Shown: piece after piece, positions 13,885 to 44,904 of the stretch
How the letters are laid out: every line of letters starts with the position of its first letter
How positions within the stretch are numbered: position 1 is the first letter of the stretch
Source: a virus
Taxonomy: Duplodnaviria; Heunggongvirae; Uroviricota; Caudoviricetes
Strand: one strand, 5' to 3'
IMG/VR virus record: IMGVR_UViG_2681813318_000003
DNA: 64,000 bases
Program-made: the position numbers and the translations under genes
Notes under the pieces: generated by a model
Seen by the model: only the letters and a program-made list of their open reading frames with translations
What the model was told of the DNA's origin: nothing
Databases searched by the model: none

Positions 13885-14958
13885 TTACTCTTCTACTGAC
13901 TCGGTGGGGTTGTCTTTTGCTCTTCGGTCGTCGATTGCCTGCAAAGCCGCAATGATTTCAGCCAGTGGCTTCTCCCGATACATCTCGACGATCTGCGATT
14001 TGGTGTATTTCTTGTCACCAATTTCAACTCGCCCGCTGGCGTTCTTTGGCAGGTATCCTTCTTCCAGCATGTACTCGACGAGCGATTCGATAACGTCGAG
14101 GCCACGAGTAGGATCGAAGTAGAATTTCCAGGTGCATTTGCCATACGGTGGTGCAACTTTGTTTTTGATGCATTCTGCGCCTACGTCCTGGCCGATCTTC
14201 TCTTTACCATCCTTCATTACCGATGCACCAAGACGGATACGTACAGAAGCGTAGAACTTCGGTGAATCTCCACCTGGCGACGTAGTAGGGTCGCCAAACA
14301 TTACACCGATTTTTGTGCGAACCTGATTCAAGAAGATGATGCAGGCGTTGTATTTGCGTGCCCACAAAGCCAGAGTAGGGAAGTTCGCACTTGTCGCACG
14401 AGCCAGTGCCGTATTGTCGTTCATGTTTAGCTGATCTTTGTCTTTGGCAGTGCCTTCAGCCATCTTTTCGAACTTCTCGGCTTTGGTGTTCGGAACCATA
14501 GACGCAAGTGAGTCAGCCACGATACAGATAGGTGCTGATTCAGGGATAAGCTCTTCATCACGTACCAATTTAAGTATTGTGCCGATCAACTCTACAGAGT
14601 CTTCGAAGGTGTCAGGCTGCTTGTATACCCACTGACCGTCATCCTCATCTGCGTTCAGGCCATTGGCTACAGCCAGGCCAACGTCAAAACTGTTTTCATG
14701 ATCGAGGAATACCGCCAGACCATCTTGTTTTTGAGCGGAGATCATCGCTGCTGTCGCAAGGAACGTTTTCCCTGCACTTGGAGGACCGAATACTTCGACG
14801 ATACGACCACATGGGAAGCCGCCATCGTAACGACCGGAAATAGCTTTGTTTAACGGTGGAAAGCCTGTATCAATCCAATGAGTTACTTTCTGAATTTCGT
14901 CGTTGCTACCGATTTTCTTTTTCAGAGCAAGTGCCAGTGCGGATTTTCCTTTTGCCAT
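13885..14958 (-). CDS. RecA/UvsX-family recombinase
   Basis: 357 aa; GRIVEVFGPPSAGKT Walker A and IIFLNQVRTKIGVMFGDPTTSPGGDSPKFYASVRIRLG, colinear with the E. coli RecA core. Confidence 0.88.
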   Translation of the reverse strand: MAKGKSALALALKKKIGSNDEIQKVTHWIDTGFPPLNKAISGRYDGGFPCGRIVEVFGPPSAGKTFLATAAMISAQKQDGLAVFLDHENSFDVGLAVANGLNADEDDGQWVYKQPDTFEDSVELIGTILKLVRDEELIPESAPICIVADSLASMVPNTKAEKFEKMAEGTAKDKDQLNMNDNTALARATSANFPTLALWARKYNACIIFLNQVRTKIGVMFGDPTTSPGGDSPKFYASVRIRLGASVMKDGKEKIGQDVGAECIKNKVAPPYGKCTWKFYFDPTRGLDVIESLVEYMLEEGYLPKNASGRVEIGDKKYTKSQIVEMYREKPLAEIIAALQAIDDRRAKDNPTESVEE

Positions 14959-17936: not shown

Positions 17937-20900
17937 TCACGTCTTAATAGTTTCTGCTACGTCGGCTAATATCGCTTCTAGTCGTTCTCCCTCTTCAGGT
18001 CTGAAGTAAAGAATGTTGGGGTTAAACCCGTAAAAGACAGTAACGTCAAGGTCTGGAAGATACTCCTTCCTGCCGACCAAATCGGATGGCTTGTTTTTGT
18101 TGTTAAACAATGCCGTTGCCCGGCTGCCACACGTCAGCACATAGGTCGGACGCACCAGATTGATCTCTTCACGTATAAAGTCGGTGAACTGGCCGATCTC
18201 GTCTTTGGTGTAGTCTTTTTCTTTGTCTTTAACCTTCTTGCAAACGCCTGTGACATAGAGATCGCCCATTCGTAAATCTCCAGCCGTCAATAGCTTGGCC
18301 TTAAAGTCGTCGTATCCGTTCTCCATAAAGTAACCGGTTCGAGCATCATTGCCGTTCGCATTGTCCAGAATGATCATGATTTTCGGCTTAATACCAATGC
18401 TGGGGCGGATTAGTTCATCACCTAAGCCCATTTCAGCCGCCATCCGCGTCATGAGTACGTTAATTTCAGCCGAACGTTTGGGGTTCATCTCAAACGGACG
18501 TGAGGCTTTAACTGCGTCTATGACAAGATTTCCCATCAATTCAGCCTGGTCGCGTAGGCGCTCTGGAGCAGTTGCTGGCAGACTACCTGGCTCGATGGAT
18601 GCAAACGCCCCTACTTTTTGCAGCGATTCGCGCACTCGACTATTACAGGCACGTTTCTCGACAGCTTCTTCGAATTGCGCCAGTGACTCGAATTTGCCGC
18701 CAACTTTTTCTCGCGCTCTCATGATGGCTTGGCAGCCATTCTCAGAACACCCCTTCACAGCAGAGAATGGCGCATACAGCACCTGGCTGCCATCTTCAAG
18801 CGTGCGGATCTCGATTCGGTTAGATGACACGTTAACGTCTGGTGGCAATACGCGAATGCCATAGGTCAGCGCATCTTTAACCAGCCCCTGGTGTTTATCT
18901 TCGCCAAGAATAGTGAGAGCAGCAGCGAAAAACTCTGCGGGATAATGAGTTTTCAACCACATAGATTGATAACTGATTAAGGAGTAAGCAACAGAGTGTG
19001 ATTTGTTGAACTGGTAGGCACCATTTTTTTCGAATGCGGTCCAGATCTCCTTCGCTTTCATCTCTGATAGCCCTGGATGTGACGCTGTAACGCGTACTGC
19101 GTTTATAGGTAGTTTTGCGCCGTGCTCAAGTGCCTCTTCGACAGTTTTCAGAGTTCCGTCTTCGCATTTAAAATGTTCCGCACGGTGAATGCGCTGTGTA
19201 GTGCCATCTTCCAGCTCAACGTCTATCCAGCCAGCTTGAGCCTGAACGATGAACTTCTCGCCCATGCTCTTCATTTTTTCCATGTTCTTCTTACCGATTG
19301 CGGAACGCACAGCGTCAGCTTCAGCCATTGTGAAGCCGGCAAGCAATCGAGTCGCGTTCATCGTCTGTTCCTGATAGAGAATCACGCCATTTGTTTCCGC
19401 GGTAAGTTCATCAAGAACGGGGTGTAATGATTCCGGCGTCATAAAGCCTTTGGCGACAGAAACATAGTCATCCAACATGCCTGATTGAATTGGCCCTGGC
19501 CGGAAGAGCGCAGTCGTAGCGACGACCGTTTTAAAGCTCATTGGCTCAATTCCACCACCTAAATCTTTAAGCAGCTTGCGCATTGGGCCTGATTCAAGCT
19601 GGAAAACACCTTGAGTATACCCAGCAGCAAAACCATCCAGCACCTTGCGATCTTCAAGAGAAATGGCATCAAGATTGATATCTTCACCTGTGTTCTCTTT
19701 TATGTAGCGTTTTGCACTATCGAGCAAATCGAGAGTTGCCAGGCCAAGCACGTCCAGCTTAATTAGGCCCATAGCCTCGCAGTAACGCTTGTCAAATGCG
19801 ATACAACGCGCGTCACCACGGCGCTCAACCGGTGTACGTTCTGTCAGAGGAACACCTGCTACGATCATCCCTGCCGCATGTCTACCAAAGCCACGCATAA
19901 GGCTTTGTAACTTGCAGGCTGCATTGAATGCATCAGGATATTTTGTTGCGTATTTGTCGAGACTTGCCAGTTGTTCGCGCAGCTCTTCCAATGGAAGGCT
20001 ATCATCCTCGACGTTCTTCAGTTCTTTTGATACCGCCATATCTGCGGACTCCACACCATAAATACGAGCGGTATCACGTAGTGCAGAGGCTGCGCCCAGG
20101 TAGGTGAAGTTCGGAATGCCTGCAACGTAATCTTCGCCGTAGCGTTCATTCAGATACTCGATCACTTCATGGCGACGTGCCTGGCTGAAGTCCAAATCCG
20201 CATCCGGCAAGTCGAGACGCTCAGGGTTGATGAAACGTTCAAACAGAAGACCGTGACGGATTGGGTCGACGTTGGTTATGCCTATGCACCATGCCACCAG
20301 AGATCCAGCGGAGGAACCACGACCAGGCCCGACAGGAATGCCAGTTTCACGGCTGTGATTCATCAGATCGCGTACCATCAGGAAGTAACCACAAAATCCC
20401 AGGCGAGTCAGCGTGTCCATTTCGTACTTTAGCCGCTCAACATAAACCCTGTTCTCAGAAGCAGGTGGTGTGTAGCCAAACTCTTTTGTGGTAAGACGTT
20501 TACGCAGCCCTGCAACAGCCAGTTTCATAAGCGTTGCAGGCTCGTCGTCTGCCATCTTTGGCAGTGCTGGCGGCAATTCATGCCAGCGCCATGTGCAGGC
20601 ATCGATAATGGTATCCTGCGTTGTTGAGGCCATTGCAGCTGTTACCGGCACATCCATGCGAACGGAGAAGGCTTTAAGCGCCTCAAGGAGATGGCGGCGA
20701 CCATTGACGGCGTTATCTCGCTGGTGGGGGATACGCAGACGATGCGGCTGGTCGATTTTGATGTTGTTCGTAACCATGTGCGCAATGTCTTTAATGTCTG
20801 CATCGTCGATCGATTCGTAATAAGCGGGATAGAACGCCACTGGCTCTATTTTCAATGCGCTGGCGACTTTCATCGCCCGGACGTTAATCTGGTCGTAGAA

Positions 20901-28991: not shown

Positions 28992-30329
28992 GTGAGGTTG
29001 ACGCACCAGAACCGGCAAGACAGCTTTAAACTAGCTGAAATGGTATGGTCGATTAGGTATCATTCAGTTTCAAAATTAACCAAAGACACTGATAAAATGC
29101 CTGTTTTGTTAATCCTCATACTTGGGACAGTGATGATTATTTTCTGGGATACCGTCAAGGAAAACGTAGAGGTCATAGGTACACTTGCCACTTCACTTGC
29201 ATTTTTCGCCACAGCATGGGCCGCTTACGAGGCAAGGCATAGTGCAAAGGCAGCAATGAGGGCTACTAGGCTGACGGCAGCTTCACTCCTTGAAATGAAA
29301 AAAGCCTCTTTTAAGGAATGGTACGGCATATTACTTGAACAGCATAATAGATTACTTGAGGATGTTAACAAGACCTTGCAGGATGATAGGGAACTTAATG
29401 CAAAACTGGGAATGAATCTCATCAAGGCTATTTATTACCATGTAACCAAAAACTCCGTTTACATTAAATATATTAACCACATAGTTTTAATTCTTGATTA
29501 TTTAGATAAAGACTTCTATTCGCCGTCATCAGCCGATTATGAAAAGAGAGCTTACATAGAACAGCTGCGCAACAGCATTAGTCCTAATGTAAGCCTGCTG
29601 ATAGCTACATTCGGCCTTAATATTGACACTAATAAAACCTATGACGCAAAGAGACTTTACAGTCTGCTAAGCAAGTATAACTTCTTCGAAGGCCAACTTT
29701 TTTTTGAAGAAGCAATATCGAAAGTTCATTATTTGGACTCTTATGCTGCTGTGATATTTGATAACGAATACCGAAAAGATGTAGAGTTTTATGTTGAAGA
29801 AATGGTTCGAGGTCGTGAGACCCCTAAAATCGATACAAGATACCGTCATTTAAGGGCTACGTTCGCAATTCTGTGGTCTTACAACAACCCCTGCCGACAA
29901 CATTTGCTTCAAAGATTTAATGACCTACCTATGCATATGCGAAACAGCATTGAGCTGAGGATGGAAAATGCAGCCGATAAAGTAGCTGAGTTCAACTCTT
30001 TGTTACCTGGTTTTATAGGCTGGGAGCTTAGAATCGCAGGTAATAAAGTGAGGGTGATCAAGGATGAAAAACATTTAAAGAGGCTAATAAAACTCAACGA
30101 TAAGTATCCTATTTCCCCCCGAGAGAGAAGTATTCTGTTAACCAATGGTATCACCAATAGATTCGCTGATGAGATTAAAAATAGTCTGTCTATGTATAAG
30201 TTAGAAAATGCCTATTTAGCACTCAACTCTAATCAACACAAAGAAAAGGTGATTGATGAAATTGTTGTTGAAGTTGAGAAAATTGTCGATAAATTTAAAG
30301 CAGAACTTGATTCTTTAGATTTCAACTAA
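28992..30329 (+). CDS. hypothetical two-transmembrane-helix protein in an AT-rich plus-strand island
   Basis: 445 aa ORF; two N-terminal hydrophobic helices then about 350 aa soluble domain; markedly AT-rich relative to flanks; true start may be internal (for example ATG 29097 MPVLLILILG). Confidence 0.6.
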   Translation: MRLTHQNRQDSFKLAEMVWSIRYHSVSKLTKDTDKMPVLLILILGTVMIIFWDTVKENVEVIGTLATSLAFFATAWAAYEARHSAKAAMRATRLTAASLLEMKKASFKEWYGILLEQHNRLLEDVNKTLQDDRELNAKLGMNLIKAIYYHVTKNSVYIKYINHIVLILDYLDKDFYSPSSADYEKRAYIEQLRNSISPNVSLLIATFGLNIDTNKTYDAKRLYSLLSKYNFFEGQLFFEEAISKVHYLDSYAAVIFDNEYRKDVEFYVEEMVRGRETPKIDTRYRHLRATFAILWSYNNPCRQHLLQRFNDLPMHMRNSIELRMENAADKVAEFNSLLPGFIGWELRIAGNKVRVIKDEKHLKRLIKLNDKYPISPRERSILLTNGITNRFADEIKNSLSMYKLENAYLALNSNQHKEKVIDEIVVEVEKIVDKFKAELDSLDFN

Positions 30330-30331
30330 GC

Positions 30332-30356
30332 AAAAAGGGGCCGAAGCCCCTTTAAT
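30332..30356 (+). terminator. rho-independent terminator (GGGGC CGAA GCCCC plus T-rich tail)
   Basis: Stem 30337-30341 / 30346-30350 followed by TTTAATTATTT; A-run upstream makes it potentially bidirectional. Confidence 0.7.
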
Positions 30357-30508
30357 TATTTGCGCTGAAAAAAGTGTTGCTACGATGCTAAGAAGCAATG
30401 GTTAAGAACGTCTGCCGTAATTGTCTATCACAGCGTTGAGCGGTCTGGTTTATGTTAGCGGAGTCTTAATCTGGGTGATTAAAAGGCCAAACCGCTCAAC
30501 GCTGTGTC

Positions 30509-30595
30509 TGGCGGAGAGTAATGGAATCGAACCATCATCGCTTGCGCAATGGGACGGTTTTCAAGACCGCTTGAGCACCATGCTCCCTACTCTCC
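30509..30595 (-). tRNA. tRNA-Ser (anticodon UGA), type II with long variable arm
   Basis: Manual cloverleaf: acceptor GGAGAGT/ACTCTCC, anticodon stem-loop GCGGT-CUUGAAA-ACCGT (as in E. coli serT), T-arm GATGG-TTCGATT-CCATT, encoded CCA. Confidence 0.7.
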
Positions 30596-30915
30596 GGCCG
30601 TTGTGGTGGCCGGTACTGAACTCCGACACAGGGTTGTAGCAAACCCCGCAAAGCGCGCACTACTGTAGTTGCGGCACATCAGCCTGTGCATTCATCACAA
30701 CGGTAAGATCACTACCTTTCGACCAGTCATTGTGCACATGAACGACGATTAACCGTAATGATATTATCGTTGTGTTGTGAAGCCAGATGCTTATCTTCTG
30801 GTTGCTTCAAAGAGCTGCACTTCCTCACAACGGTAAGAGCACTGGTCTGACTCTATCGATTTACGGCCTTGTGGGTCAGTATCGCCGATTCGCCCAATGC
30901 TCTTACCTGTTGTGT

Positions 30916-30991
30916 TGGTGCCGGTTAACGGACTTGAACCGCTGGCCATTCGCTTACAAAGCGACTGCTCTACCAACTGAGCTAAACCGGC
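30916..30991 (-). tRNA. tRNA-Thr (anticodon UGU)
   Basis: 76 nt: GCCGGTT acceptor, D-arm GCTC-AGTTGGTA-GAGC, anticodon loop TTTGTAA, T-arm AGCGG-TTCAAGT-CCGTT, encoded CCA. Confidence 0.8.
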
Positions 30992-30995
30992 AATT

Positions 30996-31082
30996 TGGTG
31001 GGGAGTGATGGAGTCGAACCACCCGAGTCGCCATGACAGTAGATTTACAGTCTACACCGCTACCTCTACGGACTAACTCCCC
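30996..31082 (-). tRNA. tRNA-Tyr (anticodon GUA), type II
   Basis: 87 nt: acceptor GGGGAGT/ACTCCCC, anticodon stem-loop GTAGA-CTGTAAA-TCTAC, long variable arm, T-arm GGTGG-TTCGACT-CCATC, encoded CCA. Confidence 0.8.
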
Positions 31083-31087
31083 TAAAT

Positions 31088-31162
31088 TGGCGATGGTGGG
31101 TGGATTCGAACCACCGACCAGTTGGTTAACAGCCAACTGCTCTACCGCTGAGCTACACCATC
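31088..31162 (-). tRNA. tRNA-Asn (anticodon GUU)
   Basis: 75 nt: acceptor GATGGTG/CACCATC, D-arm GCTC-AGCGGTA-GAGC, anticodon stem-loop GTTGG-CTGTTAA-CCAAC, T-arm GGTGG-TTCGAAT-CCACC, encoded CCA. Confidence 0.85.
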
Positions 31163-31940
31163 AATTCAGCACTGCCAGTATTTATTACTCAACAGTGCCA
31201 ATCGCGACGGTTTAGTTTCTGCCAGGAAACGCACCGCTACTTGCACTTTTCGTTAGTGCCAGACGCTTTCGACTTCGCTCAATAGTAGAAGGCAAAATCT
31301 TTAAGTAGATGATGTTTCTGAGGACAGCACCTACTTTGTAATTTATACAATGTGATGTATGGAATCATTTGTTGTGAAAACAGGCACCAATGGCAACAGT
31401 GGTTAAACCTACACAACAATCCCGTCTTCACAACGTTGAGGCCACTACTCCGATTGAATGTTTGCCCAACATGTTACATATCAACGCTCGCCGGTATCTC
31501 TGTGAATAGAACCTTAGAATTGATAAAAATGTAATGGCCTCAACGTTGTGTGCTGGCTAACCATACCAGCCGGGCTACGTCGCCGCTTTTTAACCCAGTA
31601 TAAACGACATAATTGAACAAAATGACGTAACAGGATGGGCGGTCAGTGGCTAAGAATCCGGGAGTCATATGGAGTTGAAAATATACCGACCGCCCATTCT
31701 GTTACTTCATCGGAGGGAACACTCATGTTCCCTCCTGCGTTCTGCAATCACACTCGCTCAGTGTGTCCCATTTCGGTAACGAGGCTGGAAACTGACCTCG
31801 CTGGTGTTTGGCTTATTAGGCTACTGCCAGATAGACTTCTTCGTTTGCACTTGTATTTAAGTTCAAACAGTCGCGTCTCAACGAAAACAAAGTCATCTTA
31901 TACATAAAAGATAAGTAAGTAAATACTTATCACTATGTTT

Positions 31941-44741: not shown

Positions 44742-44904
44742 CCACTGTGCTTTGAAGTCGTTTTCTGTCTTCCTGTTTTGCCTTCTCTTCCATTGCTCGT
44801 CGCGCCGCATTCCCGCCCATCGTGTAAGCGCCGACCAGAACGAAAAGAACGGCAGCCAGCGTAATCAAAGCAACTTTTAGCTTTGTCATCAGGCTGCCTA
44901 GCAT
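44653..44904 (-). CDS. inner-membrane spanin (i-spanin)
   Basis: 83 aa; N-terminal TM helix then charged periplasmic helical domain; o-spanin frame begins within it. Confidence 0.55.
   Translation of the reverse strand: MLGSLMTKLKVALITLAAVLFVLVGAYTMGGNAARRAMEEKAKQEDRKRLQSTVDVKNETVNEVRQKDASGVHRELFDKWVRD

Follow-up and report, generated by a model that had tools for sequence, protein, structure and literature searches.

Candidate RNase III processing stems among the tRNA genes of an SSU5-type phage-plasmid belong to a family of RNA hairpins found across very different phages

RNase III processing stems are a classical kind of phage RNA element, and a study of 1988 by Daniels, Subbarao, Blattner and Lozeron (Virology 167:568) reportedly dealt, to judge by its title, with RNase III sites in the late transcript of phage lambda. 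The duplex size associated with the enzyme is ∼22 base pairs (bp) (PMC6212723). Here we describe hairpins with basal duplexes of about this length in IMG/VR virus record IMGVR_UViG_2681813318_000003, an SSU5/pECOH89-type phage-plasmid; the whole stretch of 64,000 nucleotides (nt) that was analysed is called the window, and positions refer to it unless another genome is named. Four hairpins, E1 to E4, are interleaved with four tRNA genes on the minus strand and belong to a wide family of RNA hairpins carried by very different phages. We propose that they are host RNase III processing stems which punctuate an untranslated, tRNA-bearing transcript, and put the probability of this reading at about 0.55; within it we infer the enzyme, the cut sites and the accumulation of the enclosed interiors, or cargos.

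Four inverted-repeat elements had been reported here in a preliminary description, and they are present where it placed them, all forming their hairpins on the minus strand. E1 (30429–30506) is a 78-nt hairpin whose 20-nt arms (30429–30448 and 30487–30506, 95% complementary) make a continuous 20-bp basal helix, CACAGCGUUGAGCGGUUUGG / CCAGACCGCUCAACGCUGUG, with 19 Watson–Crick pairs and one G·U; the 16-bp perfect repeat noted earlier lies within these arms, and E1 is the final element ahead of the terminator. E4 (31429–31550), a 122-nt hairpin upstream of tRNA-Asn, also has 20-nt arms of 95% complementarity (31429–31448 and 31531–31550) and a continuous 20-bp helix, CACAACGUUGAGGCCAUUAC / GUAGUGGCCUCAACGUUGUG, again with 19 Watson–Crick pairs and one G·U, of which 16 bp, rather than the 15 first counted, are perfect. 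E3 (30826–30914; 89 nt) carries the canonical helix of the family, CACAAC-A-GGUAAGAGCAUUGG / CCAGUGCUCUUACC-GUUGUG, built of 6 bp, a 1-nt bulge and 14 bp (arms 30826–30845 and 30894–30914). E2 (30696–30774; 79 nt) is imperfect, as was reported, with two mismatches among the 20 helix positions of the window copy (arms 30696–30715 and 30755–30774; an alternative span, 30693–30777, gives 23-nt arms at 83%); its end, formerly put at 30779, had to be moved to 30774, the additional TTGTG belonging to the adjoining module. The E2 cargo reads GAUYRAUCGUCGU, then after a gap a stem of 3–4 bp with the 7-nt loop GUGCACA, then after another gap CUGSUCGAARG. All four elements have a basal duplex of ∼20 bp, counting the mismatched positions of E2 and setting aside the bulge of E3.

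E1 and E3 do abut tRNA 3′ ends, starting 2 nt past the CCA of tRNA-Ser and 1 nt past that of tRNA-Thr, respectively. The common start described for the elements, CACARCGKTRAG, occurs six times within their 1.1-kb region; allowing up to one mismatch, it has 7 matches in the window against 2.1 expected, and none of 100 shuffles reached 7. Compared with shuffled sequences, the minus-strand folds had z-scores of -10.4 (E1), -2.1 (E2), -5.5 (E3) and -6.5 (E4), and the helices of E1, E3 and E4 have energies of -40 to -47 kcal/mol.

The helices are strand-specific. In each element the minus-strand G·U pairing becomes an A·C mismatch on the plus strand, breaking the helix. Across 88 distinct elements of E3-type architecture, the helix cells comprised 1485 Watson–Crick, 111 G·U, 7 A·C and 69 other combinations (a count that includes related sequences and so does not represent independent events), 53 of the 69 being a recurrent U·U at pair 9. 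In variants of the E1/E4-type helix, too, mismatches on one strand turn into G·U on the tRNA strand; at locus L164, for instance, three mismatches and no G·U become no mismatches and three G·U pairs. All 147 element–tRNA pairs lying no more than 600 nt apart at other loci were co-oriented, again with related sequences among them. The excess of G·U over A·C and the constant co-orientation with tRNAs argue against a DNA-level inverted repeat; the observations consistently indicate that the helices are kept by selection on RNA of the transcribed, tRNA-bearing strand.

The preliminary description had suggested a search for further copies. There is a fifth hairpin in the window and a wide family in other phages. 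The E3-type 5′ arm is present in at least 120 IMG/VR contigs and the E1/E4-type helix at 56 and 58 loci, E4 homologues being 112–122 nt long and E1 homologues having variant interiors. All of the elements are non-coding, and outside the window the 3′ arm is mostly followed by GUGAAU. The carriers (lambda, P1, SSU5-like, Phapecoctavirus and 9NA-like phages) are unrelated. Family members stand in the tRNA clusters of ∼150-kb myoviruses, many copies in lambdoid prophages lie directly after a tR′-like terminator downstream of a Q-like gene, and tRNA-Thr is immediately upstream in 34 further occurrences. A single basal helix, CACAAC-A-GG-U-AAGAGCAUUG ... CAGUGCUCUU-U-CC-GUUGUG, encloses at least 43 mutually dissimilar cargo clusters of 29–129 nt, of which five of the 43 contain T-arm-like hairpins, including the P1 copy beside trnT. 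The search pattern for E3-type elements fixed the 5′ arm, whose conservation therefore partly reflects ascertainment; this does not remove the real contrast between arms that are identical and cargos that are unrelated.

Close parallels to the window are found in P1, whose ban operon has four family hairpins, one of them abutting trnT as E3 abuts tRNA-Thr. The spacer between tRNA-Ser and tRNA-Thr matches P1 between trnT and tciA, the homologous region of the window keeping the RNA structures and the match being patchy (58% of the query); P1 also annotates a dicF-like region in the operon that holds its hairpins. On the opposite strand of P1 (NC_005856, 69,472–70,041), the open reading frames (ORFs) upl (‘unknown’) and plp (‘putative lipoprotein’) overlap three of the hairpins and their spacers; these ORFs may be annotation artefacts. 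Parts of the same spacer match an unannotated gap in the tRNA cluster of Phapecoctavirus phiWec188, in the orientation of the tRNAs, and an intergenic gap among the structural genes of 9NA-like siphoviruses.

Presence and absence of the modules can be compared between close relatives, as the region of the window matches Escherichia phages CMS-2020a and Cyrano at ∼97% identity, and 122 plasmids of the E. coli group (∼110 kb) match it over at least 80% of its length. In Cyrano, tRNA-Ser and tRNA-Thr are only 8 bp apart, so that this phage lacks E2 and E3; tRNA-Tyr is missing as well. Between tRNA-Thr and tRNA-Ser the sense strand of Cyrano (locus L001, 3265–3274) has CACAAUU alone, where the window has E3, the spacer S1, E2 and the spacer S2 (30596–30915); on this strand, direct CACAAC repeats flank the indel. 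On this sequence comparison, modules appear to be gained and lost by recombination at the boundary hexamer. An element of IMG/VR 2921842437_000007 (locus L044) is chimeric, with a 5′ arm of the CACAACAGGUAAGGGCA type, a 3′ arm of the type ending in CUCAUUCGUGGG (as in PJ16) and a P1-type T-arm cargo; recombination probably produced it, with one base left unpaired.

Covariation could be assessed most cleanly for the E2 type, since this set was retrieved through its cargo motif and its arms are accordingly free of ascertainment bias. Four different helix sequences enclose the E2-type cargo, the contexts being SSU5-like, Phapecoctavirus, 9NA-like and lambdoid, and all eight variants keep the 20 helix positions despite these differences. 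Double compensatory changes affect 8 of 13 helix pairs, and the apical 3-bp stem covaries too. Helix cells were paired in 96.9% of cases compared with 83.7% in shuffles, none of 500 shuffles reaching the observed value, while the covariation score was 0.454 as against 0.171 in shuffles and 0.06–0.10 in slid registers. The internal-loop sequences are invariant. In the apical 7-nt loop (30730–30736 in the window) the hexamer varies and yet stays self-complementary (GUGCAC, GCGCGC, GGGCCC), apart from one variant, GUGCCC, which is not; these few sequences suggest that the RNA may dimerize by loop–loop (kissing-loop) contact. The E2-type cargo is very probably functional, and its conservation suggests that some excised cargos act as small RNAs.

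Phage lambda has a 76-nt member at 44,787–44,862, immediately after the 6S RNA and the tR′ terminator. Its helix, CACAACAGGUAAGAGCAUUG ... CAGUGCUCUUUCCGUUGUG, is a homologue of the E3 helix; the local fold has an energy of -34.3 kcal/mol (z = -3.9) and contains the longest duplex of the late leader. Neither NC_001416 nor J02459 annotates this member, which shares its first 29 nt with the end of the hypothetical orf-64. This copy was probably already mapped in 1988. In K-12, the dicB operon of the Qin prophage contains one diverged copy between ydfC and dicF, ∼125 nt upstream of dicF (locus L216, ∼18175–18257; MG1655 ∼1,649,174–1,649,256), which keeps the order of 6 bp, bulge, 2 bp, mismatch and ∼10 bp while its sequence has changed in a compensatory way; no copy of the family was found in the K-12 DLP12 prophage. 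A 19-bp inverted repeat, opening with the GUGGUGAAUGCG spacer motif, closely follows dicF (L216, ∼18445–18592; MG1655 ∼1,649,444–1,649,591).

What such hairpins would do is suggested by their place in the transcript. The minus-strand transcript would run from a DNA-ligase operon through tRNA-Asn, -Tyr, -Thr and -Ser to a terminator at 30334–30353, and E1 to E4, together with the fifth hairpin, would be stem-loops in its untranslated 3′ part of ∼1.6 kb. A basal duplex of ∼20 bp, about two helical turns, would be a substrate of host RNase III, and cuts within the helices would split the long transcript into pieces. Cleavage would detach the tRNAs from the mRNA and free the tRNA 3′ ends that lie 1–2 nt from a very stable helix; in the 3′ maturation of E. 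coli tRNAs, a helix left uncut at 1–2 nt past the CCA would be expected to block trimming. Each cargo would be released as a stem-closed small RNA.

We favour RNase III because the ∼20-bp duplex is constant whatever its sequence, because selection acts on the RNA, and because of the positions of the elements and their spread over unrelated phages, which points to a host factor rather than to a phage-specific one. The elements have an intramolecular duplex of ∼20 bp that is kept by selection on the transcribed RNA; an RNase III stem would be expected to have one of ∼20–22 bp. Their positions fit processing: 1–2 nt past a CCA, at the 5′ end of a tRNA-Arg, and after tR′-like terminators in late leaders. 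The tRNA-Arg case comes from L036 (7031–7109) and L139, in which an E2-type cargo in an E3-type helix runs directly into tRNA-Arg(UCU); as the tRNA-Arg start called by ARAGORN falls within the last 3 nt of GUUGUG, RNase P cleavage would set the 3′ end of the hairpin there. The preliminary description had offered three possibilities, among which processing signals are the best supported; stable small RNAs are compatible with this, since cutting the basal helix would set the interior free as a small hairpin RNA, and miniature mobile elements, in the sense of transposons, found no support.

Several observations weigh against processing by RNase III. The E2 copy of the window, with its two mismatches and weak fold (z -2.1), may be decaying. 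An identical 17-mer encloses the 43 or more unrelated cargo clusters, seemingly a degree of sequence conservation beyond what pairing needs, so that a sequence-specific partner other than RNase III could be involved, although the 5′ arm was fixed in the search pattern. For the cargos of the E4 and E1 types RNAalifold gave no consensus interior fold; in these types the basal helix alone is structurally conserved, some sequence motifs persisting. A minimum free energy fold of 600 nt of the lambda leader favours an alternative pairing, GUUGUGCUG/CAGCACAAC, and does not recover the hairpin; we treat a global fold of such length as unreliable.

One alternative, which overlaps with processing by RNase III and does not compete with it, and which we regard as possible though distinctly less probable, is that the cargo is the function, the helix being a scaffold or expression cassette and the products diverse trans-acting small RNAs, some of them tRNA-like. 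The wealth of unrelated cargos in one helix, the T-arm-like hairpins of five clusters and the E2-type cargo, conserved over four unrelated phage groups and four helix sequences with its palindromic loop hexamer and covarying apical stem, would be so explained; yet unconstrained loops drifting on a held stem would likewise yield unrelated cargos, and the lack of a consensus fold in E4/E1-type cargos counts against it. If the hairpins were instead left uncleaved and acted as barriers to 3′–5′ exonucleases or as RNA stabilizers, in the manner of REP elements, their great stability (E1, E3 and E4) and the position of E1 as the last structure ahead of the terminator would follow, but a helix so close to an encoded CCA should then stop tRNA 3′ trimming, and a barrier would have no need of a constant length of ∼20 bp or of the bulge and mismatch that are conserved; we think this unlikely. 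Still less probable is cleavage by RNase P of an acceptor-stem-like minihelix at its 5′ edge (A|CACAAC). RNase P does accept other substrates than tRNA precursors, such as 4.5S RNA and the C4 RNA precursors of P1 and P7, the elements are packed against tRNAs as the tRNAs are against each other, an unpaired A nearly always precedes CACAAC, and in some cargos a T-arm is stacked on the helix; however, no RCCA follows the 3′ arm (the flanks in the window are AUAG, AGGA, AUGA and AAGA), and 38 of the 43 cargo clusters have no T-arm.

The commonest 3′ arm begins UGCUCUUU, and the 3′-arm motif UGCUCUU(U/A) resembles boxA, which reads UGCUCUUUAACAA in rrn and CGCUCUUA in lambda. Were the elements Nus-factor antitermination sites shielding the transcript from Rho, an untranslated array of ∼1.6 kb would make sense, and so would the occurrence of one spacer module ahead of gene N in the PL leader of a P22-like phage. 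The motif, however, is base-paired, where boxA requires a single-stranded GCUCUU(U)A core, it is absent from E1 and E4, and it is exchanged with compensation in the 5′ arm for UACCCUUACC in P1, UGCGCUUCCG in Qin and GGCCUCAACG in E4, which argues for selection on pairing and not on a boxA sequence; this identity was dropped as very improbable. The chance is slighter again that these are miniature inverted-repeat transposable elements with terminal inverted repeats, or some other DNA-level element such as recombination sites. Conserved termini with variable interiors, many copies over unrelated phages and the lack of E2 and E3 in Cyrano would suit a mobile element, but the strand asymmetry (111 G·U to 7 A·C) is that of selection on single-strand RNA, orientation always follows transcription (147/147), no transposase is associated, the flanks listed show no target-site duplications or direct repeats, and recombination between direct CACAAC repeats accounts for the indel of Cyrano; this identity too was given up. 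Least credible of all are degenerate tRNA pseudogenes or bacterial Y RNAs (YrlA-like partners of Ro60), despite the T-arm-like hairpins in a minority of cargos. The preliminary description had failed to fold the elements as tRNAs, and neither ARAGORN nor the Rfam model RF00005 calls one, the hairpins having been scanned up to E-values of 10, so a tRNA or pseudo-tRNA identity was rejected. The sequence GUCGAAAG in E2 does fit the Y-RNA motif GNCGAA(N)G (PMC4201824), but it lies in the 3′ half and is CUCGAA in homologues. YrlA (RF02553) has no match in the window up to an E-value of 10, and in P1 it matches solely over tandem tRNAs (25.6 bits, as against a threshold of 69); of nine ORFs tested that flank the array within ∼4 kb, none has a TROVE/Ro60 or RtcB domain. 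The Y RNA identity was discarded on the scan, the motif position and the absence of a Ro60 gene from those ORFs.

The segments between the elements are conserved modules in their own right. Each spacer is bracketed by GUUGUG...CACAAC, and the GUUGUG of a 3′ arm can therefore pair either with its own 5′ arm or with the CACAAC downstream. In a bracket module at 31371–31434 on the minus strand (GUUGUGAAGACGGG ... CCUGUUUUCACAAC; -24.5 kcal/mol, z -2.7), the GUUGUG of the E4 3′ arm is reused as the 5′ strand of a second helix that is mutually exclusive with the base of E4. The same layout is seen in lambda, where the alternative pairing joins 44,857–65 to 44,933–41. By such pairing, a downstream cleavage product could refold to carry a 5′-terminal stem. 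Spacer S1 (30774–30831, minus strand), between E3 and E2, reads GUUGUGAGGAAG ... CAACCAGAAGAUAAGCAUCUGG ... CUUCACAAC and is conserved in P1, in 9NA-like phages and, ahead of gene N, in a PL leader of P22-like type. In the PL leader of Salmonella phage SPN9CC (locus L147, 3480–3620) the CAACCAGAAGAUAAGCAUCUGG module is enclosed by GAUGCGAUG...CAUCGCAUC and closely precedes the start codon of N, at roughly the place expected of a nutL-type site. Spacer S2 (30596–30695, minus strand), between E2 and tRNA-Ser, reads AUGAAU-GCACAGGCUGAUGUGC ... GGAGUUCAGUACCGGCCACCACAAC; modules of its type have GUGAAU, then a small hairpin with the loop GGCUGA, and end in GGAGUUCAGUACCGGCCACCACAAC, their stems covarying between loci.

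The fifth long hairpin (31622–31712, minus strand; GAUGA-A-GUAACAG-A-AUGGGCGGUCGGU ...) has ∼25 bp with two 1-nt interruptions; its terminal sequence differs and lacks CACAAC. Adjoining it is a perfect 10-bp GC-rich hairpin, GGAGGGAACA...UGUUCCCUCC (31713–31737), and folded jointly the two reach -58 kcal/mol (z -7.1). In a strict scan of the whole window, long ungapped hairpins were found only at E1, E4, the fifth hairpin and one match inside an ORF, shuffled sequences giving 0–3. The ORF-internal match (14369–14487; 19 bp), which requires G·U pairs on the plus strand and lies within a minus-strand ORF of 357 amino acids, was set aside as a count equal to chance expectation. The preliminary description had recognized the four elements and missed the fifth hairpin, the minus-strand placement of tRNAs and RNA structure, the conserved modules between elements and the family in lambda and P1.

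ARAGORN called four tRNAs, and only these, all on the minus strand: tRNA-Ser(UGA) at 30509–30595 and tRNA-Thr(UGU) at 30916–30991, both read with an encoded CCA, tRNA-Tyr(GUA) at 30996–31082 and tRNA-Asn(GUU) at 31088–31162. The tRNA-Ser is absent from the general Rfam tRNA matches at gathering threshold, presumably because of its long variable arm, and at 30512–30596 the tRNA-Sec model scores 46.6 bits (threshold 47); ARAGORN calls a normal tRNA-Ser. The array amounts to ∼1.6 kb of untranslated RNA. It ends, as does the convergent plus-strand ORF at 28992–30329, at the GC-rich hairpin AAAGGGGCCGAAGCCCCUUU (30334–30353), which looks like a bidirectional terminator and to which no strand is assigned.

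Neither Rfam 15 nor a literature search yielded a description of these hairpins at family level. At gathering threshold Rfam 15 has nothing over the hairpins and spacers of the window (hairpins scanned to an E-value of 10), of the lambda, P1 and Sasha loci (scanned to an E-value of 1) or of 16 lambdoid loci; a literal search of the literature for the helix sequence returned no paper, and recent work on prophage small RNAs from the same genomic slot, including the 2026 Pas-sRNA preprint, does not mention the hairpins. A sub-threshold match to STnc100 on the minus strand of P1 (locus L002, 1218–1337; 33.4 bits against a threshold of 47, E = 2.5e-4) was not reproduced in the 16 lambdoid loci at gathering threshold and was rejected; its start falls on the GUGAAUGCG spacer motif, exactly where the 3′ arm of a hairpin ends. 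The novelty appears to lie in several features taken together: dozens of cargos housed in one helix, boundary hexamers shared in arrays, direct abutment on tRNAs and spread over very different phages.

If these interpretations hold, the lambda late-leader structure would be the founding member of a large, modular family of RNAs that neither Rfam nor the genome annotations examined contain and that spans lambda, P1, SSU5-type phage-plasmids, ∼150-kb myoviruses and 9NA-like siphoviruses. The release of tRNAs from within long phage transcripts would be explained, probable mis-annotations (upl and plp in P1, and spurious ORFs over hairpins elsewhere) would be corrected, and the cargos would supply a defined set of candidate phage small RNAs; SSU5-type phage-plasmids carry resistance genes in E. 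coli, Klebsiella and Salmonella. A bolder idea, which we entertain only tentatively and think doubtful, is that the ∼20-bp helix serves as a portable excision cassette, the analogue in bacterial viruses of the pri-miRNA stem, by which dozens of swappable small RNAs are cut out of highly transcribed leaders and of tRNA operons, among them tRNA-like T-loop RNAs and the conserved kissing-loop RNA of the E2 type. Enterobacterial phages would then swap cargos by recombination at the arms; their small RNAs would form a hidden and rapidly evolving repertoire that might include regulators or decoys for tRNA-targeting defences, and P1 upl and plp would be artefacts laid over such RNAs.

Among the described systems closest to the family are the RNase III sites of the lambda late transcript, the lambda hairpin directly after tR′ being homologous to the E3 helix; in lambda, however, it stands in a Q-dependent leader, whereas the elements of the window flank tRNAs at the 3′ end of an operon, and the helix sequence of E1 and E4 differs from that of lambda. 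With the DicF/dicB operon of Qin (Faubladier et al., 1990, as known from its title) the family shares context and helix architecture but not the small RNA itself, the Rfam DicF model giving no match in the region of the window at E-values up to 10. Like the bacterial Y RNAs, family members have a long helix of the 5′ and 3′ ends that encloses a module, with a T-arm in a few cargos; they differ in that the YrlA model is unmatched, none of the nine flanking ORFs tested belongs to a Ro60 family, the putative Ro motif lies in the wrong place and few cargos resemble tRNAs. The T4 tRNA cluster (species 1 and 2; rnaC/rnaD), with which the preliminary description had compared the elements, also has structured RNAs other than tRNAs among phage tRNA genes, presumably co-transcribed and co-processed, but species 1 and 2 RNAs are matured by the tRNA-processing pathway, whereas the anatomy seen in the window points to a double-strand-specific nuclease. 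The early RNase III sites of T7 and the leader–trailer stems of rRNA likewise separate the functional units of a polycistronic transcript by a duplex some two helical turns long. The central bulge and mismatch of the E3 type resemble the internal loop of T7 R1.1, and in 16S and 23S rRNA, as in the elements described here, a stem formed by the flanks encloses the product. Sequence similarity to the T7 and rRNA stems is lacking, and unlike them the present family combines one helix with dozens of enclosed RNAs and lets neighbouring elements share CACAAC and GUUGUG in mutually exclusive helices.

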